Assembly (NCBI GenBank): GCA_964387505.1
Contig: CAYLWF010000021.1
Coordinates: 12 to 64,011 of the forward strand
Source of the DNA: an uncultured Candidatus Saccharibacteria bacterium
GTDB taxonomy: Bacteria; Patescibacteriota; Saccharimonadia; Saccharimonadales; UBA4665
Direction of reading: 5' to 3'
Length of the DNA stretch: 64,000 bases
A model generated the notes under the pieces. It saw only the letters and a list, made by a program, of their open reading frames with translations, did no database searches and was not told where the DNA came from. Shown in pieces: positions 1 through 58,153 of the stretch. The position numbers and the translations under genes are program-made. Position 1 is the stretch's first letter. The number at the start of each line of letters is the position of its first letter.

Positions 1-1220
1 GGTGCCGACGGCCGGGTCAAGGATTTGGACGCGATGGGTCTGTACTGTCTTGGTCAGCCGGTCTTTGCGCTCGCCCGGCATACGCCACGGTTGGGTTTCA
101 ACCTCGCGTTCACATGTTTCTGCGCTGGCAATGCCGTCGGCTATGCCGAAATCTTCCTTTAGTATGCGGTCAACTTCGCGGATGATGAACTTAACCACTG
201 GCGTGGGTGTGTAGTACGCTCCCATGCTTTTGCGGAGCGCGGGGTCATATTCTTTCAAGAAATCTTCATAAAAGTGTATGAGCGGGTCGCGGTCGTTTTC
301 GACTTCAAAGAGGCGCAAATGTTTCTGAATGAGCGTATGGACATCGCTTACCGCAAAAACGGCACAGAGCTCGTCGACTATGTAGGCAAGGCGTTGGTCG
401 AACTCTATACCAGCAATGTGGTCAAAGAAGTGGCGCAAGAACGGGTTGCTGCGGGGAATGTTCGCCTGCGCCTCCTGACGAGTAAAATCGTCAAGTGAGG
501 TGTCGTTGTAGCGCCCCACGAACAACCCATACACTAGGGTTTGGGCATACATATCGGCAAATTTTTCTGGCGTGAGGTCATGGACGAGCAGCTGCTTCAT
601 TTTGGCGTACACGCCATCAAGCGAAGCGTTTTTATCTGTTTCGAGCGCTAGGAATTTGTCTATGCTATCTCGGACGCGCCTGGCGTAGCCGCCCATAATG
701 ACCGCTAGCCGCTTGCCAGAACGAATTTGCTCAGGCCGGCGCTCTAGAAACGCAGCGAGTTCGCGGTAGAGCTCTGAACCATTTTCCGGAGTTAGTTGCA
801 ACGAGTCATTTTTGATGGTACCGAGCGAGACGGTAGTAGTTTTCTCGCCATTACGAAAAAAGCGGAATTCCAGATAGTCGGTAAGAAACAGATTGTCGTA
901 CCCGCTGTAGCGTTCCATTTGGTTGGATTTCTCGACTTTGTCCAGGTTGATGGTGAGGTCTTTTGCCTCGGCGTAGCCTTGGAATATTCGCGGGTTCGAT
1001 TTTTTCAAAAATACAAAGTCAGGCGCGCCATGTTCACTGCGCTTAGGATCGTTTATGGCGTTGATACCGGAGAATGACTCAATTAACCTTTCGAGCGCGC
1101 CCCGGTACGCATGCTCTCTCGCTTGCCCCGAAGCAAACTTATCCTGAATTATGGTTAGGTACTCACTCACTGCATCCTGCATGTGTATAAGTATACGCTG
1201 AAACGGAGCATTTGCTGCCA
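1..1220 (-). CDS. Type IIG/IIL restriction-modification enzyme (MmeI/Eco57I-like), N-terminal part. The CDS runs off the left edge of the window.
   Basis: Absent from the ORF track because it has no stop in the window. The reverse frame from ATG (1220..1218) is open to position 1 (~406 codons). The translation MAANAPFQRILIHMQDAV... has a PD-(D/E)xK-like motif (GAPDFVF...GYAEAKD). N6-adenine methyltransferase motifs follow (HFYEDFLKEYDPALRKSMGAYYTP; VQILDPAVGT at the edge). Confidence 0.75.
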
Positions 1221-1664
1221 TGCTAATAATTTGTTACTAAAAAGTGTTTTCAAGCACCCCATCCTTCAGCATTGTTATAGTTTCTTTAAGTGGATTAGCA
1301 TGGTTGTTGTGAATAATCCGCGGTGAAAGGTACAGATGGAGATTTGCTGTCCCGGGTGAAAATGCGGAATTCTGTAATCTAGCTCTCAGACAAACATAAG
1401 GGTTATGGTGTATGGTAGGGGCAATGCGTTTGACTGACTTGCCGAAACGCTTCAAAAAACTAACATCGTGGAAAGGAACTCTCGCCCTATGAAACGATTA
1501 CCAACCATAAAGTCACTAAAACGTCTGCCGGTGCTCAACCGCCCCATTCGCGTAGCCGATGTGCAAAAGGAAATTGACACTGACGCCTACGCCGACACTT
1601 GGCTGCTGCATGCCGAGAAGCTCGAAACCAAACGCCTCCGCCGCTTCCGCCAACAACTCGCCAG

Positions 1665-2444
1665 CTAAAAAAGCTCCATTTGTAGATGGCCGTTCGTATT
1701 TTCAATGATTCCGAGCGAGCCAAGGAACTGCTCCATACTCAAGTCATACTTTTTGGTAAATTCCTGGCGATGCGCTAGTTTCGCTAGATTGAACTTGGCT
1801 GTATTTTCTAAAGATACAGCCAGACGATTCGGTAGAACATAGCCCAGTACTATTAAACACTCTCCCACTGCTTGACTAATTGGTATAGCTTGCTCAAGGT
1901 CTGTCATGGTGGGTGGACCACTCAACTGGTACGTGCCAAGTGACTTGTGAAGTCTGTCGAAGCATCGCTGGAAAACATAGAACGGATTGAGGTTTAGTGT
2001 CGTTGAGCCGCCTGCCTTATTTACTACGCCGAAAACATCTGCCACTTCTAGAGCAATCGATTCAATATCCTCTACCGTCCCTATGTGTTGCTCGGTACTA
2101 ATTTTGTGGTTCGACAATGCTTCTCTAACAGACGAAGTCAAGGTTGTTCCATTTCGGTTACTGATATCGGCTAGGAACCACAGCAGGTCCCCTGCTTCGT
2201 CGGCGGCTTTCAACTTTGCGTCATGCTTTGGTTGAAGGCTTGTTAACCCAGGGCTGGGCGGAAGCAGCGCTAGGGCAATATCACCGTGCTGGCAAAGAAA
2301 TTCAAGATGCTCATCAGCAACCAGTGGGCCGTACGTAGATTCCCAGCCATCTTGTTGTAAGGTTAGACCTCGACGGTATGCACAGACTGCTCCTTGAAAC
2401 TCCGTGAGATTCAGCTTTGTCTCAGGCAGATGTTCATAGTACAT
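1665..2444 (-). CDS. Tandem MazG-like (all-alpha NTP pyrophosphohydrolase-like) protein
   Basis: 259-aa ORF. It has two MazG-type helix pairs: KLKAADEAGDLLWFLADISNRNGTTL and AVGECLIVLGYV...NLAKLAHRQ. Confidence 0.5.
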   Translation of the reverse strand: MYYEHLPETKLNLTEFQGAVCAYRRGLTLQQDGWESTYGPLVADEHLEFLCQHGDIALALLPPSPGLTSLQPKHDAKLKAADEAGDLLWFLADISNRNGTTLTSSVREALSNHKISTEQHIGTVEDIESIALEVADVFGVVNKAGGSTTLNLNPFYVFQRCFDRLHKSLGTYQLSGPPTMTDLEQAIPISQAVGECLIVLGYVLPNRLAVSLENTAKFNLAKLAHRQEFTKKYDLSMEQFLGSLGIIENTNGHLQMELF

Positions 2445-14701: not shown

Positions 14702-15538
14702 ATGGACCACCCAATAAACCCTCGCCAACCCATTCGTATCGCCGTTATGGGCCTCAGTGGTGTAGGCAAGACAACCTTAGCGCGATGCTTGCCCGACAGT
14801 CGCTGGTTTCACTACAGTGTCGACTATCGTATATGGACACATTACCTTGGTGACGAGCTGAACGACTACCTGAAACAGCTCGCCATGTCCCATCCGCTCC
14901 TGCGCGACATGCTGAAACGCGATGCCATAACGATCGAACACCGTGTGCATTTTGATAACTTGCTCGCAACGTCACTCTATATGGGCATGCTCGGCAACCC
15001 GAAAAAGCACGGCTCTACCCTGCCCGATTTCACGGCTCGCATGGCGCGGCACGCTGAAAGCGAAATTGCGGCTATGCTCGACTTGCCAAAGTTTATTCAG
15101 CGTGCAGAAGATTTGTACGGCTACCCGAACTTTCTGGCCGATCTTTCCGGTAGCTTGTGTGAAGTCGTGGAGCCAAGTTCAGACAGAGACCCGGTGCTAC
15201 GCATGATGGACGAAACCGTGACGCTTATATACATTCGTGCTACTAAGGCACACGAGAAAGTGCTCATAGAACGCAACATTGCCGACCCGAAACCAATCTA
15301 CTACCGGCCGGATTTTGTTGCCGCGGAGCTGCCTGGGCTGCTCGAAAAATTTCACGCGGCTGATGTGACTGAAATAGACCCGCACAAAGTCGGTGCGTAC
15401 CTATATCCTCGCCTACTTGCGCACCGTGTCGAGCGCTATGAGGCCATTGCCGCCAAACACGCACTGACGCTCACCATGGAAGAGGCGGCTGCTATTCGCA
15501 GTGAAGCAGATTTGCTTGCGCGCTTGGCGCAGAGCTAG
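14702..15538 (+). CDS. P-loop NTPase/kinase-like protein of unknown function
   Basis: 278 aa. Walker A is MGLSGVGKTTLARCL. It starts 12 nt after the thrC stop. Confidence 0.5.
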   Translation: MDHPINPRQPIRIAVMGLSGVGKTTLARCLPDSRWFHYSVDYRIWTHYLGDELNDYLKQLAMSHPLLRDMLKRDAITIEHRVHFDNLLATSLYMGMLGNPKKHGSTLPDFTARMARHAESEIAAMLDLPKFIQRAEDLYGYPNFLADLSGSLCEVVEPSSDRDPVLRMMDETVTLIYIRATKAHEKVLIERNIADPKPIYYRPDFVAAELPGLLEKFHAADVTEIDPHKVGAYLYPRLLAHRVERYEAIAAKHALTLTMEEAAAIRSEADLLARLAQS

Positions 15539-16098
15539 TCTTTTGTTTGGGTTTGCAGGGTGATTTTGTAGATTGAGTAGAGCAAGAGCAGACTGCCAAT
15601 GACGCTAAACGTGGCGCCTATGTTGTGGACTGCAGTGAGCGATGTTGCGCCAAAGGTTGCGAGGAGCGGGCCGAGCAGCGATGTCCCGCAGGCCGCGCAG
15701 CCGCTACTCAGTATGCCAAGCGTGGCAGCAAGTCCGCTGGTACCGGTTGCTCGGGCAGACGCAGTTTTGCGCCGCAGTGAGTACACCAAAACGGCTAGGT
15801 TTATTCCGAACAAAAACGACAATGAGATGACGCTGACAGAGAGAAAACTGTCAAATGAGGTGAAAAGTGCTTCGTAGCCATAGCTAAAAAACCGTAGTTT
15901 TTGTGCCACTGACATGTCGGGATTCGTGATGATATAGCCTACTAGTTCATAGTTGAGTGACCAAATGATGATGGTCAGCATGAGGAACGCGCAGACAAGC
16001 GCAAAAAGCGCATAGAGCGGTTTTTTGAGCACAATTCTGGCAGTGTTTGTCGTAGCGAGCCTCAGCTTTGTTTTGAGCGGTAGCTTGAGGGAACTCAT
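15535..16098 (-). CDS. Polytopic membrane protein with an intramembrane CxxC (GCAACGTSLL). The family is not recognised.
   Basis: 187 aa with ~4-5 predicted TM helices. An ATGA overlap links it to the upstream DsbA-like gene. It is a clear paralogue of 57473..58153. Confidence 0.6.
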   Translation of the reverse strand: MSSLKLPLKTKLRLATTNTARIVLKKPLYALFALVCAFLMLTIIIWSLNYELVGYIITNPDMSVAQKLRFFSYGYEALFTSFDSFLSVSVISLSFLFGINLAVLVYSLRRKTASARATGTSGLAATLGILSSGCAACGTSLLGPLLATFGATSLTAVHNIGATFSVIGSLLLLYSIYKITLQTQTKD

Positions 16099-16793
16099 TG
16101 TACTTGCAGGAGTGCCTTATAGACATTGTATGGCTGCGGGCCGACAATCTTTTGGCCGCCGATGAGGAGTGTGGGTGTGCCCTGCACCGAATCTCCCGCA
16201 GCCTTGTCGACGGCTGCGTTGTACGCGTCTGCGTGCGTGCGGCCGGCTGCGCAGGTTGTGAAAGTCGTCCTATCAAGACCAGCCTCGCCCGCGAGTTCAC
16301 CGAGTTTTTCTGGGCTAAAGAGCTTCTGAGTTGTGGCGTCGAAATTACCCTTGCTGAAGTAGTTGCTCCACATAAAGCTGAACATTTTGTCGTGATAGGC
16401 AGTGAATTTGCTCTGTTCTGCAGCGCAAAACGATGCGTAGAGCGCGAGTCCGGAGTCTTCGCCAAACAGTGGGTATGGGCGGTAAACAATCTTTGCCTTG
16501 CCGGTGTCTACCCATTCGCGCCGAATGTCTTTGCCTGCTTTTTCATGAAACTCGTTACATTTTGGACATTTGTAGTCACCGTATTCGACAATGGTGATTG
16601 GCGCGCTTTCCTTGCCAATAACTAGTTCGGTCGGCATGCTGCTCTGGCTTGTGTCTTTTGCATGCGTCTCATTATCTTTGGCTTGTGTTTGGGCATTTTG
16701 TTTGGGTTTTTCGGTGTCATTTTTGCCAAATACAACAAACAGTCCGCCGCCTATAACGGTAAGTGCGAGAAAGAATATGGCAAATCGTTTCAT
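16095..16793 (-). CDS. DsbA-family thioredoxin-fold thiol:disulfide oxidoreductase (secreted/anchored)
   Basis: 232 aa. It has an N-terminal signal/TM, an active-site motif GDYKCPKCNEFH and a DsbA-like C-terminus (GTPTLLIGG). Confidence 0.8.
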   Translation of the reverse strand: MKRFAIFFLALTVIGGGLFVVFGKNDTEKPKQNAQTQAKDNETHAKDTSQSSMPTELVIGKESAPITIVEYGDYKCPKCNEFHEKAGKDIRREWVDTGKAKIVYRPYPLFGEDSGLALYASFCAAEQSKFTAYHDKMFSFMWSNYFSKGNFDATTQKLFSPEKLGELAGEAGLDRTTFTTCAAGRTHADAYNAAVDKAAGDSVQGTPTLLIGGQKIVGPQPYNVYKALLQVQ

Positions 16794-16869: not shown

Positions 16870-17796
16870 CTAGTCGTTGTCGCTGCCGCCAGAGCCCGAA
16901 CCAGAGCCAGAGCCAGAGCCAGAGCTGCCTGACCCAGAGTCATCAGAGCCTGAACTTCCAGAGTCAGAATTGCTGCTGCCAGAGCCAGATCCGGAATCGT
17001 CACCACTGTCATTTGCGTCGCTGTCTGAGGAAGAGCTGTCGTCGGTTGCGTCGTTGCTGTCGCTCGACTGTGTCCGCGTTTCTTCCGCGCTTCGAACGCG
17101 TACAACGGAGCCGCTCGTGGCATTTACATCCACGCGCCCGCCGTCACTAAACCGTACGCTGTACACGACCACGTTGTTTTCGGTTTCGAGTTCGATTTTG
17201 GTAATTGTTTTGCCGGGTCGCTGGGCTTGAGCGATATCTCGTGCTTGTTGCACGGTAACACTTGCCACAAAGCCTGCTGGGACCGACTCGTCTTGTTCGT
17301 TTTCATCATCGGAAGGTTTCACTACCGCTAGGCCTGTCGTGGCGTTGTAGTAGCGGACAGTACCGTCGCTAAAGCGGACTTTGTAGACAAGCGTACCTTC
17401 CTCTTTTTCAAGCTCTATACCGGTGATTGTGCCGTTTGGTACGTCTTTGAGCGCAGCTTCACGAATGTCTGCTACCCCAAGTACGTTGGCGAGGTCAGTT
17501 GGGAGCGCAACTTTTTTCTCTGAGTTTACGCGCTGACGATTTGCCCCGACAAATGCTGACATGCCGCCCACCACGATGAGCACCGCCAGTACCGCCAGTC
17601 CGGTCGCGGTCGATAGTTGTTTGAAGGCTCCGCGAACAAAACCTATAAAAGATTGTTTCGTCTTCTGTTTTTTAGCCATAGTTTCTCCTTGCGTTACGCT
17701 AAATAATTGTTTTTTTAACTGTTTCTTAAAGTTTGTATCTATACGCAGCTGCCTGCTATCGACGCGGTGTCGCAAGTCTTTTGGCAACTTTGTCAT
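16870..17796 (-). CDS. Membrane protein with two PepSY domains and an acidic S/G/D low-complexity tail. It is a candidate anti-sigma partner.
   Basis: 308 aa. Its start overlaps the stop of the ECF sigma gene by 4 nt. It has one TM helix and two PepSY-like units (GTITGIELEKEEGTLVYKVRFSDG; KTITKIELETENNVVVYSVRFSDG). Confidence 0.65.
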   Translation of the reverse strand: MTKLPKDLRHRVDSRQLRIDTNFKKQLKKQLFSVTQGETMAKKQKTKQSFIGFVRGAFKQLSTATGLAVLAVLIVVGGMSAFVGANRQRVNSEKKVALPTDLANVLGVADIREAALKDVPNGTITGIELEKEEGTLVYKVRFSDGTVRYYNATTGLAVVKPSDDENEQDESVPAGFVASVTVQQARDIAQAQRPGKTITKIELETENNVVVYSVRFSDGGRVDVNATSGSVVRVRSAEETRTQSSDSNDATDDSSSSDSDANDSGDDSGSGSGSSNSDSGSSGSDDSGSGSSGSGSGSGSGSGGSDND

Positions 17797-18308
17797 ACGG
17801 TCTCCTTTCTTTCGGTGAGTGGGTTATCGAGTATATTGCGCAGCCGGCGCAGCGCTCTGGCGTAGGTGGTCTTTACATAGTTGGCGTCTTTGCCCAGTGT
17901 ATAGGCGGTGTCTTTGACGCTCATATTTTGAAACACGCGTAGCATCACGACGGTACGTTGTTTTTCGGGAAGGCTCTGTACGTAGGGCATCAGTCGCGTG
18001 ACTGGCTCTTCAGTTTGTTCAAACTCTTCTATAGTTTCGTCGGCATATGCCGCAAAATCCTCTATGTTCTCGACTCGCACCACCTGCTCTTGGTACTTTT
18101 CGCGCAAATGCGTTGTCCAGACGTTACGCATAATGCCGTACAAATATTTTTTATGGTCTTGGATGTCGGTGTCCTCTGCCTGGCGGATAAACGCGGTAAA
18201 GGTGTCTGCCGTCAGGTCTTCGGCAGTGTGCCGGTTTAAACATTTTATGTAGAAGAATTTGTAGACAGTGTCGACGTATGCATCATAGACTGCTTCGAGA
18301 TTCATCAT
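17793..18308 (-). CDS. ECF-type sigma-70 family RNA polymerase sigma factor
   Basis: 171 aa. It has a region 2-like segment (VYKFFYIKCLNRHTAEDLTADTF) and a region 4 HTH (MSVKDTAYTLGKDANYVKTTYARALRRLR). Confidence 0.8.
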   Translation of the reverse strand: MMNLEAVYDAYVDTVYKFFYIKCLNRHTAEDLTADTFTAFIRQAEDTDIQDHKKYLYGIMRNVWTTHLREKYQEQVVRVENIEDFAAYADETIEEFEQTEEPVTRLMPYVQSLPEKQRTVVMLRVFQNMSVKDTAYTLGKDANYVKTTYARALRRLRNILDNPLTERKETV

Positions 18309-55182: not shown

Positions 55183-55848
55183 ATGAATCTAAAAAAACTT
55201 CAAACCCACTGGAAAGTACTTTTGCTAGTACTTTTAGTTGTCGCGCTGAGCGGTACAACGGTGTGGGCGCTTCAGGAAAAGAACCGAGCCAACGAACTGA
55301 GTCAGCAACGGAGCGGTCAGGGGCAAAACTGGTCGAACAGCCAGGCAACCGACACGACTGCTCATTTGGAGGAGCATGGTATTACGCCGCAAAACGCGGA
55401 GGAAGCAAGCAACAGTGCCGCTACGGCTGATGAACTCACCTATCTTATTGAGGAAGAAAAATTAGCGCACGATGTCTACCAAGCAATGTATGACAAATGG
55501 GGCGCGCGGGTGTTTGGCAACATCAAAAACAGTGAAACCATGCACCAAAACATGGTGTGGGCGGTGATGGAAAGCCGCGGCCTTGCCGACTCTCGAACTG
55601 CAACCGCCGGCACTTTTAAAAACGCAGATTTGCAGGCGCTGTACGACAGGCTGATTGCGCAGGGCAACCAAAGTGTGCAGGAGGCCTACAAAGTCGGTGT
55701 AGTTGTCGAAGAAACCGACATTGCCGACCTGAAAAAGACGCTTGCAAACCTTGACCCGAAAGATGCGGACGTAAAAGCGGTTTTGGAAAATCTGCTGCAC
55801 GCGTCTGAGAATCATCTTCGGGCATTTAGCCGCCAGGCGAATAGATAG
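55183..55848 (+). CDS. DUF2202 (ferritin-like) domain protein, secreted/anchored
   Basis: 221 aa. It has an N-terminal TM helix, and LTYLIEEEKLAHDVYQAMYDKWGARVFGNIKNSETMHQ is typical of DUF2202. Confidence 0.65.
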   Translation: MNLKKLQTHWKVLLLVLLVVALSGTTVWALQEKNRANELSQQRSGQGQNWSNSQATDTTAHLEEHGITPQNAEEASNSAATADELTYLIEEEKLAHDVYQAMYDKWGARVFGNIKNSETMHQNMVWAVMESRGLADSRTATAGTFKNADLQALYDRLIAQGNQSVQEAYKVGVVVEETDIADLKKTLANLDPKDADVKAVLENLLHASENHLRAFSRQANR

Positions 55849-55864
55849 CATATACTATCTTTAC

Positions 55865-56434
55865 ATGACAACTCAGTCCGATGAGCCAGATGAAGCAATT
55901 GTCGCGCGTGTTACGGGCGGTGATAGCGACGCCTATGCCGAACTCATGGCGCGGTACGAACCGAAACTGCACCGCTACGCAACCTACCTCATTCATGACC
56001 CAGCGGCTGCGCACGATGTGATGCAGGAAACATTCATCAAGGCGTACCAACACTTGCAGAGCTATAAGCCGACGTACAAGTTTTCATCGTGGTTGTACCG
56101 CATAGCTCACAACGAGGCGATGAACGCGGTGAAAAAACGTGGGTCTACAGCCGCGGAAGATATTGAAACCCTACCAGAGCTTGGCTACGAGCCGCACCTT
56201 GACGAACAGCTCGACGCTGAGATGACAAAAGTGCAGGTGCACCGCTGTCTCGCAAAACTAGAACCCAAATATCGCGAGGTCGTGCAGCTGACGTACTTTG
56301 AGCACATGCAGTATGACGAAGTGAGCGATGTGCTCCGTGTTCCAACCTCGACCGTTGGCGTCTGGCTCATGCGGGCAAAAAAGCAGCTCCGGGCAATTTG
56401 TGAACGTGCGCAGCAGAAAGGAGGCAGACAATGA
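55865..56434 (+). CDS. ECF-type sigma-70 family sigma factor
   Basis: 189 aa. It has region 2 (FSSWLYRIAHNEAMN) and a region 4 HTH (MQYDEVSDVLRVPTSTVGVWLMRAKKQLR). Confidence 0.82.
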   Translation: MTTQSDEPDEAIVARVTGGDSDAYAELMARYEPKLHRYATYLIHDPAAAHDVMQETFIKAYQHLQSYKPTYKFSSWLYRIAHNEAMNAVKKRGSTAAEDIETLPELGYEPHLDEQLDAEMTKVQVHRCLAKLEPKYREVVQLTYFEHMQYDEVSDVLRVPTSTVGVWLMRAKKQLRAICERAQQKGGRQ

Positions 56435-56907
56435 AACAAAAACATTCTGTCAGCAACACTGTTATGGCGCAAATCAAAACCGGCCAGCTACAGATGAAAC
56501 CGAGGCGCTACTACACGCTACTCACACTTGTTTCGGTTATGTCCGTGGGCCTTGCATCTCTCGTGAGCGCATATCTGTTTAGTATGCTGTTTTACTGGGT
56601 ACGCATACACACTGCCGACACGCCGGCGTGGGGCGCGCGGGCGCGCCTGAGTGAATCACTTGCGTCATTTCCGTGGTGGGCGCTTGGTCTCGCGCTGCTA
56701 CTCGTAAGTTTTACGGTCTGGCTGGTACGCCGCCACGGCCGGATGTATCGCCACCGTACTGTGACGCTCGGACTCGCCATGCTCGCTCTTTCTCTGCTCT
56801 TTGGTTTTGTGCTGTCTTACCTCAACATTGGCCGGCCGCACACGCCGCTTCGTCAGAATCAGTCTGTTCAGCACGATCGGCCAAACGCAGGCTGGCACCG
56901 CTATTAG
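56431..56907 (+). CDS. Polytopic membrane protein, candidate anti-sigma factor
   Basis: 158 aa. Its start overlaps the stop of the sigma gene by 4 nt. It has ~4 TM helices and no recognised motif. Confidence 0.45.
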   Translation: MKQKHSVSNTVMAQIKTGQLQMKPRRYYTLLTLVSVMSVGLASLVSAYLFSMLFYWVRIHTADTPAWGARARLSESLASFPWWALGLALLLVSFTVWLVRRHGRMYRHRTVTLGLAMLALSLLFGFVLSYLNIGRPHTPLRQNQSVQHDRPNAGWHRY

Positions 56908-57064: not shown

Positions 57065-57457
57065 CTATTGAACGAGTTTGCCGCCTATGGACTTGACGCG
57101 GGCAAGGCCGCCGAGATCAGTGACATTTGTGTAACCGGCGTTTTTGAGCAGTCCGGCGGCTTGCGAGGAGCGGCTGCCGCTTTCACAGTAGAGGTAGATT
57201 TTTGCATCTTTTGCGGTGTCTGGTAGTTTCCCAGCTGTTATGTCTTGCAGCGGCCAGTTGATGGCGTTTTCGTAGTGGCCGAGCTTGAATTCTTCTGGTG
57301 TGCGTACATCGTACAGTTTGCCGCCTGCGGCGACATCTTTTTGCACTGTGGCAAATGTCAGTGAGGGCGCGCTGGTTTTTTCGCCCTGCTTACTAAAAAC
57401 CAGCCAGCCAAACATGACCACTAGTACTGCGACGAGCACTGCAAACCCTTTATTCAT
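57065..57457 (-). CDS. Rhodanese-domain sulfurtransferase with an N-terminal anchor
   Basis: The start is taken at ATG 57457 (MNKGFAVLVAVL..., GGAGGG RBS). The active-site loop is YCESGSRS. The longer track ORF (to 57754) is unsupported. Confidence 0.75.
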   Translation of the reverse strand: MNKGFAVLVAVLVVMFGWLVFSKQGEKTSAPSLTFATVQKDVAAGGKLYDVRTPEEFKLGHYENAINWPLQDITAGKLPDTAKDAKIYLYCESGSRSSQAAGLLKNAGYTNVTDLGGLARVKSIGGKLVQ

Positions 57458-57472
57458 ATTCCCTCCACTTGT

Positions 57473-58153
57473 GTGCGTTATTTGCTGCGTTACCTTATAA
57501 TTATACACGTGGTAAAAAGTCAGCGCTGGAATTTTCTGGTCGCAAAACTGAAGGTCTCTGCAAATGCACTTGTATGGCTCTTTAGTCACCTGCGCTACAC
57601 AGTTGCAGCCGTGCTGGCGGCGCTGTTCTTTTTTGAGTTGGTCTACTGGATGCTGAAACTGCCGGTTTTTTGGACACTCATGACTAGCCCGCATCTTTCG
57701 CTGGCAGACAAACTGCATCAGTTCGTCGGGCCGTTTACGTACCTTACTGCGCAAAACGGCTATTTCATCGCGAGCCCCATGGTCTTACTTGCCGTCATAC
57801 AGGGCGTTTCACTTACGGCGGTGGTGTATGCGGTGCGGCACCAGCCCAAACTAGACGAATCGCTGCTAGGCGAAAGTGCTGTTATAAGTTTCATTGCGCT
57901 CATAGGTTTGGGTTGTCCGGCCTGCGGCACCTCGCTCATAACGCCCATTGTCGCCCTCTTTGTGTCCGGCTCGGCGGTTGCCGTCTCGCAGGTGATTGCC
58001 CGCATACTCCTACCGCTGGCCGTCCTCATCGGTCTCTATGGTCTGTACGTCGTGGGCTTACGCGTCGCAAGCATCCGTGCCCACCACGGCCCCACCCACC
58101 TCCGCACCCACCCCCTCTCCTCCCGTTTCAAACGAACAAAAAAGAGCCGCTAA
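57473..58153 (+). CDS. Paralogue of the CxxC membrane protein 15535..16098 (GCPACGTSLI)
   Basis: It aligns with 15535..16098 at three segments: TSPHLSLADKL/TNPDMSVAQKL, GVSLTAVVYAVRHQ/GINLAVLVYSLRRK and GLGCPACGTSLITP/SSGCAACGTSLLGP. The start codon is uncertain. Confidence 0.55.
   Translation: MRYLLRYLIIIHVVKSQRWNFLVAKLKVSANALVWLFSHLRYTVAAVLAALFFFELVYWMLKLPVFWTLMTSPHLSLADKLHQFVGPFTYLTAQNGYFIASPMVLLAVIQGVSLTAVVYAVRHQPKLDESLLGESAVISFIALIGLGCPACGTSLITPIVALFVSGSAVAVSQVIARILLPLAVLIGLYGLYVVGLRVASIRAHHGPTHLRTHPLSSRFKRTKKSR

Follow-up and report, generated by a model that had tools for sequence, protein, structure and literature searches.

The DsbA-like/CxxC operon

The 64,000 nt stretch of DNA analysed here (hereafter the window; contig CAYLWF010000021.1 of assembly GCA_964387505.1, from an uncultured Candidatus Saccharibacteria bacterium with a genome of 1.07 Mb, 97% complete) encodes two members of a family of small membrane proteins, each with a single CxxC motif, which we refer to simply as the family. 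One of them is encoded by the last gene of an operon, directly behind the gene of an exported DsbA-like oxidoreductase, and its role beside that enzyme is our subject. A first-pass annotation of the window had proposed this membrane protein as an analogue of DsbB or VKOR, the membrane proteins that re-oxidise DsbA. The features of the operon, with the evidence for each in brackets, are:

15535..16098, reverse strand: CxxC membrane protein with four transmembrane (TM) helices, 187 aa, the window's founding copy of an unannotated family (list of open reading frames, ORFs)
15685..15702, reverse strand: GCAACG motif, residues 133-138, at the outer end of TM3 (145-sequence alignment)
16095..16098, reverse strand: ATGA overlap of the DsbA-like stop and the membrane-gene start (read in the sequence as caATGAgt)
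16095..16793, reverse strand: membrane-anchored, exported DsbA/MdbA-like oxidoreductase, 232 aa (Pfam and partner alignment)
16870..17796, reverse strand: membrane protein with two PepSY domains, overlapping the upstream sigma gene by 4 nt (Pfam PepSY, 6.6e-22)
17793..18308, reverse strand: sigma factor of the extracytoplasmic function (ECF) type, head of the operon (Pfam Sigma70_r2, Sigma70_r4_2, Sigma70_ECF)

The order of transcription is thus ECF sigma factor, PepSY membrane protein (a probable anti-sigma factor or sensor), DsbA-like protein, CxxC protein. The overlap of the last two genes through ATGA, as read in the first-pass annotation, is borne out by the ORFs and by the sequence at 16095-16098. 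In the DsbA-like protein a hydrophobic N-terminal anchor and a low-complexity linker precede a thioredoxin domain of the DsbA type, with a CPKC active site (residues 76-79), a GTP cis-Pro loop and, in C123 and C181, a further conserved pair of cysteines; its Pfam matches are Thioredoxin_4 (PF13462; 7e-29, 101.5 bits, cut-off 23.2) and DSBA (2e-15, 57.2 bits). The CPxC motif, the cis-Pro loop and the second Cys pair are common to the DsbA-like partners of family members (alignment of 14 sequences, in which CPKC and GTP are conserved), and the profile match, CPxC motif, cis-Pro loop and anchoring together place the partner gene among the DsbA/MdbA-like oxidoreductases. Residues 133-144 of the CxxC protein, GCAACGTSLLGP, begin with its GCAACG motif. 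At its other end the CxxC gene overlaps by 4 nt, at its stop (15535-15538), the end of a convergent P-loop kinase-like gene that lies downstream of thrC (14702-15538, forward strand), with no space for a terminator between the two.

Size, conservation and topology of the family

Close homologues of the 187-residue protein are 'hypothetical proteins' of Candidatus Saccharibacteria, and an exhaustive search of 1.8 billion representatives (clusters at 50% identity) returned 698 homologue clusters at E <= 1e-3. An alignment of 145 diverse members, with 24-84% identity to the window protein and an overall identity of about 25-30%, shows that C134 is invariant (145/145) and that C137 is present in all members except one (144/145). 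G133, C137 and G138 are each conserved in at least 97% of sequences, and the exact G-CxxC-G string is missing in seven. Conservation outside the motif includes N49 (134/145), a Lys or Arg at position 67 (142/145) and G98 (137/145), with N100 and S175 also common. Judged by the number of homologues and the conservation of the cysteines, the 187-residue ORF is a real gene. No second conserved Cys pair was found across the alignment; cysteines other than those of the CxxC are sporadic or belong to the C-terminal tail, where a third Cys, on the predicted cytoplasmic side, occurs in 55 of the 145 members and in neither window copy.

Charge is distributed unevenly along the alignment, with net charges of +3.8 at the N-terminus, +3.4 in the TM2-TM3 loop, +1.1 at the C-terminus and -0.2 in the TM1-TM2 loop. 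By the positive-inside rule the N-terminus, the TM2-TM3 loop and the C-terminus are predicted to be cytoplasmic and the TM1-TM2 loop to lie outside. The CxxC lies within a stretch, residues 122-153, that is free of charged residues throughout the 145 sequences. An AlphaFold2 (AF2) model built on the same alignment (predicted local distance difference test score, pLDDT, 88.7; predicted template modelling score, pTM, 0.81; confidence lowest near the CxxC) comprises an N-terminal amphipathic helix, TM1, two short outer helices, a long TM2, a TM3 that ends at the CxxC, a short helix and TM4. We infer that the Cys pair is located in the bilayer's outer half, roughly two thirds of its thickness from the cytoplasmic face.

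One member, P0105, carries a Pfam Glutaredoxin domain (31 bits) fused to the family N-terminus, that is, to the end assigned to the cytoplasm by charge bias; a length-restricted search found no relatives of 397-2000 aa. Variation of another kind is seen at two loci, L080 (1498-1818) and L083 (1501-1815), where the family gene is cut to its N-terminal half (104-106 aa, no CxxC) with the DsbA-like gene still adjoining; these may be decaying or split copies. Contig C12 of genome G296 (loci L004, L058 and L094) has a tandem arrangement in which a DsbA-like gene is followed by a distant member with two CxxC motifs (CPVC and CGQC) and then by a typical member. Some 1.7 kb further downstream, past three genes on the opposite strand, is a VKOR gene of 135 aa.

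Relation to known thiol membrane families

Neither window copy has a Pfam or NCBIfam match; Pfam DsbB gives none even at E <= 1, and Pfam VKOR, DsbD_TM and MauE give none either. There was likewise no recurrent Pfam match over the 145 members, the commonest being DUF7560 at noise level (eight members, E >= 0.02), and a profile search found no match among PDB sequences. Among the 120 near-length matches listed of the profile search none had a Pfam domain or an informative name, all being 'hypothetical'. Profile-profile comparisons with hhalign, for which the target alignments were built from Patescibacteria genomes or plasmids, gave the family probabilities of 0.06% against DsbB (PF02600; two Patescibacteria sequences), 0.2% against VKOR (PF07884; nine Patescibacteria sequences, including the genome's own), 0.4% against MauE (PF07291; 13 Patescibacteria sequences), 0.9% against CcdA/DsbD_TM (PF02683) and 0.3% against MerT. 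The highest value, 24%, was obtained with MerC (PF03203; five sequences, pairwise E = 8e-4, 49 columns), which is a lead and not evidence of homology. In structure searches Foldseek found nothing in the PDB at E <= 0.001 with two AF2 models (pLDDT 79.6 and 88.7), the best VIA-align matches (Z 8.3 and 6.9) are to unrelated helical proteins and lie inside the chance range for helical bundles, and the best Atlas structure match is an unannotated cluster (TM-score 0.54-0.60).

These comparisons uphold the first-pass annotation, which had recognised in the protein none of DsbB, VKOR, CcdA or MerT, and neither profile-profile comparison nor structure prediction, both of which it had recommended, assigned the family confidently to any known one. 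We considered membership family by family. DsbB was rejected for want of a profile match and on the cysteines, of which the CxxC alone is conserved and no second loop pair is present; VKOR was rejected on the same two counts and because the CxxC, in the model, ends TM3 rather than starting TM4. DsbB/BdbC and VKOR bear a general likeness to the family: they too are four-helix membrane proteins whose CxxC is close to the outer face, and their DsbA-like partner is encoded next to them or as a fusion with them. Both, however, depend on a quinone site and on a further Cys pair carried by a loop, and the family has no second conserved pair. CcdA/DsbD_TM was rejected because it too gives no profile match and because the four helices and single CxxC of the model differ from six TM helices with one Cys on each of two symmetry-related helices.

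MauE closely resembles the family in layout. It replaces DsbB in E. coli and has four TM helices, a conserved Lys and just two cysteines, which belong to an outward-lying motif that separates TM3 from TM4 (bioRxiv 10.64898/2026.03.05.709764). Like the family it is small, has its sole essential cysteines in a short motif after TM3 within a poorly ordered segment, and is often encoded with a thioredoxin-fold protein. The two differ in the motif itself, CxC followed by F/L-G in MauE and GCxxCG here, which together with the lack of a profile match led us to reject membership; MauE is also the one whose activity has been tested in E. coli. At Patescibacteria MauE loci (L042, L046, L047 and L048) several MauE proteins carry an N-terminal extension, YTCPMHPE...PGxCPxCGM, that looks like a fused heavy-metal-binding zinc-ribbon-like domain. 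Literature searches found no description of the CxxC family and, as far as profile comparisons can tell, it is a large, unannotated and undescribed family without homology to the known thiol membrane families.

The MerC lead bears on one alternative, a Cys-ligand relay in which a thiophilic species such as Cu(I), Hg(II) or sulfane sulfur would pass from the DsbA-like protein or a rhodanese to the membrane CxxC and then inward, by the logic of MerP, MerT and MerC. MerC is the best profile-profile match to any known family, and the alignment pairs family TM3-TM4 with MerC TM1-TM2 over GCAAC...P.LA.FGA: in both MerC/MerT and the family GCAAC lies in a glycine-rich membrane helix and is followed by P-x-L-A-x-F-G-A and a second helix, forming an in-out-in hairpin. 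MerC also combines its membrane CAAC with C-terminal cytoplasmic cysteines, as do the many family members with a tail Cys, and the place of MerP, the outside CxxC partner there, is taken here by the DsbA-like protein. Family genes moreover have recurrent rhodanese neighbours (see below), CsoR and a heavy-metal P-type ATPase are encoded next to P0105, and ArsR-type helix-turn-helix genes are the commonest further neighbours (4/20 loci), cupredoxin genes occurring at 2/20. The likeness is local only, however, since the hairpin is TM1-TM2 in MerC and TM3-TM4 in the family, and no mer genes are nearby; in a six-frame genome search neither window gene matched the Pfam MerC model, and the value for MerT is lower still. 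No metal gene adjoins the family genes in the window, where the copper-island context is absent, nor is such a context evident at the 20 loci tallied. DsbA-fold proteins are not known to shuttle metals, the exception being ScsC, for which Cu(I) binding has been reported. We consider such a relay distinctly unlikely.

Redox inventory of the genome and of family-positive genomes

The first-pass annotation saw no DsbB or VKOR in the window, and there is none; its premise that the DsbA-like protein therefore lacks a re-oxidant fails at the level of the genome. A canonical VKOR (E = 3.9e-39, 237-aa ORF, CPYC) is encoded on contig C5 of the same genome, as is, on contig C25, a second, stand-alone DsbA-like protein (L031, 1423-2130, reverse strand; 235 aa, CSAC, Thioredoxin_4 8e-21), a candidate partner of that VKOR. 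Because the genome has its own VKOR, the CxxC protein is not its missing DsbA re-oxidant, at least in the simple sense. DsbB, CcdA/DsbD, MauE and DoxX were not found above cut-off in the genome, and a glutaredoxin-like gene matching the glutaredoxins at neighbour loci (below) is present on contig C16. On contig C5 (L001, features at 933-1292, forward strand, and 1339-2052, reverse strand) VKOR converges on a small rhodanese gene of the 90-aa type, so that in this genome a rhodanese adjoins both VKOR and the family paralogue described below.

The same holds across genomes. The family was found in 22 of 301 genomes sampled from the phylum and in 36 of 201 sampled from the class. Of the 22 family-positive genomes in the phylum sample, 13 have VKOR (94/301 overall), five have MauE (32/301 Patescibacteria genomes overall) and two more have DsbB, and at least one of the three occurs in 18 of the 22; CcdA is present in 13 of the 22 (134/301 overall). 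The family accompanies known oxidant systems and does not replace them, and on this distribution we rejected the idea that it substitutes for VKOR, DsbB or MauE. A DsbA-like gene paired with a family gene, with none of the three oxidants detected, is confined to three genomes (G038, G245 and G254).

These counts bear on the main rival to the reading that we favour, namely that the family is a quinone- or other acceptor-linked oxidase, a non-homologous analogue of DsbB, VKOR and MauE that re-oxidises its own DsbA-like partner. The MauE-like layout, with GCxxCG at the outer end of TM3, K/R67 and N49, is in its favour, as are the DsbA/MdbA-like nature of the partner, a pair that precedes type IV pilus genes (L054, below) and the three genomes with a pair and no detected oxidant. 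Against these stand the genome's own VKOR and a known oxidant in most family-positive genomes, the lack of a shuttle Cys pair of the DsbB/VKOR type, the negligible profile similarity to all three oxidases, and a cytoplasmic glutaredoxin fusion or adjacency and a cytoplasmic tail Cys that an oxidase would leave unexplained. We hold an oxidase to be unlikely, while ranking it first among the alternatives.

Conserved pairing with DsbA-like genes and other neighbours

Of the 24 foreign loci in the phylum sample, 12 have a DsbA-like gene next to the family gene and on its strand, and an adjacent DsbA-like gene was found at 22 of 25 newly fetched loci in the class sample. In most lineages the DsbA-like gene comes first and in others the family gene does. 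The pairing extends beyond the candidate phyla radiation (CPR), where it is found on large contigs at L052, whose partner has a ScsC_N domain, and at L054. The strong conservation of this coupling makes a redox partnership the natural reading, and to that extent the proposal of the first-pass annotation stands; its choice of a DsbB/VKOR-like role does less well, given the co-occurrence with VKOR, MauE or DsbB and the glutaredoxin, thioredoxin and thioredoxin reductase context. That annotation had named two observations that together would speak against it, a canonical DsbB or VKOR in the genome and a pairing with DsbA that is not conserved: a VKOR is present, and the pairing is conserved.

Putative physical contact between the partners was also modelled. 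Complex prediction for the DsbA-like domain and the family protein scored 0.43, against 0.00 for the best control, which is weak support: among 80 solved complexes 58 attain the mark it passed, as do 2 of 110 mismatched pairs, and with scores of 0.60 or below just seven of those 80 complexes attain it, together with both of the passing mismatches. The runs had at least 68% of contacts in common, with a partner pLDDT of at least 66.

Beyond the DsbA-like gene there is no third conserved operon partner among the three nearest genes on each side of 20 loci. Several thiol-active neighbours nevertheless recur in smaller numbers. Signal-less glutaredoxin genes of 76-83 aa lie directly upstream of the family gene at L071 and L075, which are two of the three class loci without a DsbA-like gene; glutaredoxin genes also lie directly upstream of the DsbA-family pair at L063/L111 and downstream of it at L061/L110. 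A thioredoxin-reductase-like gene is found directly 3' of the family gene at L012/L100. In the subfamily of the paralogue, an operon for thioredoxin reductase, Fur, rhodanese and glutaredoxin faces the rhodanese-(DsbA)-family genes at L116 and L117, and a thioredoxin gene faces the DsbA-family pair at L119.

Two other arrangements were noted. In genome G138 (L013/L101) the family gene lies between two DsbA-like genes, the upstream one encoding 271 aa with CPFC and the downstream one 396 aa with CEAC. On the metagenomic contig L054 (4571-8197) the genes that come after the DsbA-family pair are those of a response regulator and a type IV pilus ATPase (T2SSE), a T2SSF gene and a prepilin-like gene.

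It could be argued that the adjacency to DsbA-like genes reflects co-regulation only, and that the family protein, with cysteines that take no part in redox chemistry, serves in structure or assembly or as a transporter. The weakness of the predicted complex and the seven sequences without an exact G-CxxC-G fit this view. It sits poorly with an invariant C134 and a C137 lost once in 145 sequences of such low overall identity, and with neighbours that are consistently thiol-active (DsbA-like, glutaredoxin, thioredoxin, thioredoxin reductase, rhodanese), and we consider it very improbable.

The paralogue and its rhodanese neighbour

The second family member in the window stands in a different setting, of which the features are:

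55183..56907, forward strand: genes preceding the rhodanese/paralogue pair, for a DUF2202 protein, a second ECF sigma factor and an overlapping membrane protein (Pfam)
57065..57457 (likely extent), reverse strand: membrane-anchored single-domain rhodanese, 130 aa, with an N-terminal anchor, divergent from the paralogue (Pfam Rhodanese, 2.7e-14)
57509..58153, forward strand: CxxC membrane protein paralogue (GCPACG), 214 aa (gene callers' GTG start at 57509; the longest ORF runs from 57473)

The paralogue, whose motif is GCPACGTSLITP, is 26% identical to the 187-residue protein over 159 residues (BLASTP, E = 6e-17), so that the first-pass annotation was right both in calling it a paralogue and in placing it beside a rhodanese. 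That rhodanese matches the NCBIfam PspE-like model at 1.9e-13, under the cut-off. Both family loci in the window lie downstream of ECF sigma factors.

An orthologue of the paralogue at L114 is found in the gene order of the window, identical down to the DUF2202, sigma factor and membrane-protein genes; the divergent rhodanese/paralogue pair recurs at L114 and L115, and at L117 an orthologue is part of a rhodanese-DsbA-family operon. Because orthologues of the paralogue either keep the synteny of the window or sit in such operons, the two window copies appear to be variants of one system. Rhodanese genes recur beside the family (in the window and at L114, L116, L117 and L070), which gives recurring support to the suggestion, made as an alternative in the first-pass annotation, of a link to sulfur chemistry. 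Reading from this arrangement, the paralogue may serve the anchored rhodanese directly.

A proposed glutaredoxin-fed thiol relay

The glutaredoxin fusion and adjacencies, with the thioredoxin and thioredoxin reductase neighbours, point to a relay linked to the cytoplasm at least as strongly as to an oxidase of the DsbB/VKOR type. They reproduce the gene logic of thioredoxin, DsbD/CcdA and DsbC/ResA, and for this reason we favour the following reading, to which we give a probability of roughly 45%: the CxxC protein is a glutaredoxin-fed transmembrane thiol relay that keeps its DsbA-like partner reduced, a job like that of CcdA/DsbD done by an unrelated protein.

In such a relay the CxxC protein would be the dedicated membrane partner of the co-translated, anchored DsbA/MdbA-like protein. 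A small cytoplasmic glutaredoxin-like protein, recharged by thioredoxin reductase, would reduce the membrane CxxC, which would in turn reduce the exported DsbA-like protein; electrons would thus flow outward, a direction suggested by gene context. Exported cysteines would then have the DsbA-like protein as their reductase, isomerase or protector, and among its substrates, which are likewise deduced from context, might be the single catalytic Cys of the anchored rhodanese. The operon would be under ECF-sigma (envelope-stress) control, and the oxidising branch of the pathway would be provided by VKOR and the second DsbA-like protein of the genome. Elsewhere the same job is that of CcdA, DsbD or ScsB with DsbC, DsbG or ScsC.

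CcdA, DsbD-beta and ScsB resemble the family in this proposed job, in that a membrane Cys pair links a cytoplasmic donor of the thioredoxin or glutaredoxin type to an exported thioredoxin-fold protein, and in a three-part gene logic of cytoplasmic glutaredoxin or thioredoxin, membrane protein and exported thioredoxin-fold protein (clients DsbC, DsbG, ScsC and ResA). They differ in build, having six TM helices and two single cysteines on symmetry-related helices; the family has just four TM helices, and its one CxxC is confined to a single one of them.

Several points weigh against this relay. The transmembrane conduits for reductant that are known rely on two cysteines, each on its own helix of an inverted repeat, whereas here a single CxxC would have to be reached from both sides of the membrane. 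The DsbA/MdbA architecture of the partner is one that oxidases usually have, and the position of the L054 pair within a type IV pilus operon suggests oxidative pilin folding. No glutaredoxin, thioredoxin or thioredoxin reductase gene is adjacent to the family genes in the window, and some cases of adjacency come from related lineages and are hence non-independent. Finally, CcdA is present in 13 of the 22 family-positive genomes, so the family does not simply replace CcdA.

Significance

Thiol and disulfide management outside the cytoplasm rests on few membrane families: DsbB, VKOR, DsbD/CcdA and, recently, MauE. About a fifth of surveyed species lack any known oxidant (bioRxiv 10.64898/2026.03.05.709764), so further pathways are to be expected. 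MdbA-like oxidoreductases are enriched in CPR, where they are thought to fold pilins and where VKOR is just the third commonest of their neighbours (Meheust et al., PMC6744442); the pilus operon at L054 is in keeping with a proposed role of CPR DsbA-like enzymes in pilin folding.

The family described here is probably a new, unrelated one doing a known kind of job. More tentatively, it may represent a third, evolutionarily independent way of carrying thiol-disulfide chemistry across a membrane, with one CxxC, four helices and a glutaredoxin supply, serving exported DsbA-like proteins and perhaps anchored rhodaneses, and widespread in the quinone-poor, ultra-small CPR. Once shown, the function of the family would add a component to the Dsb toolkit, and it would help to explain how envelope redox control is achieved in host-dependent Saccharibacteria.

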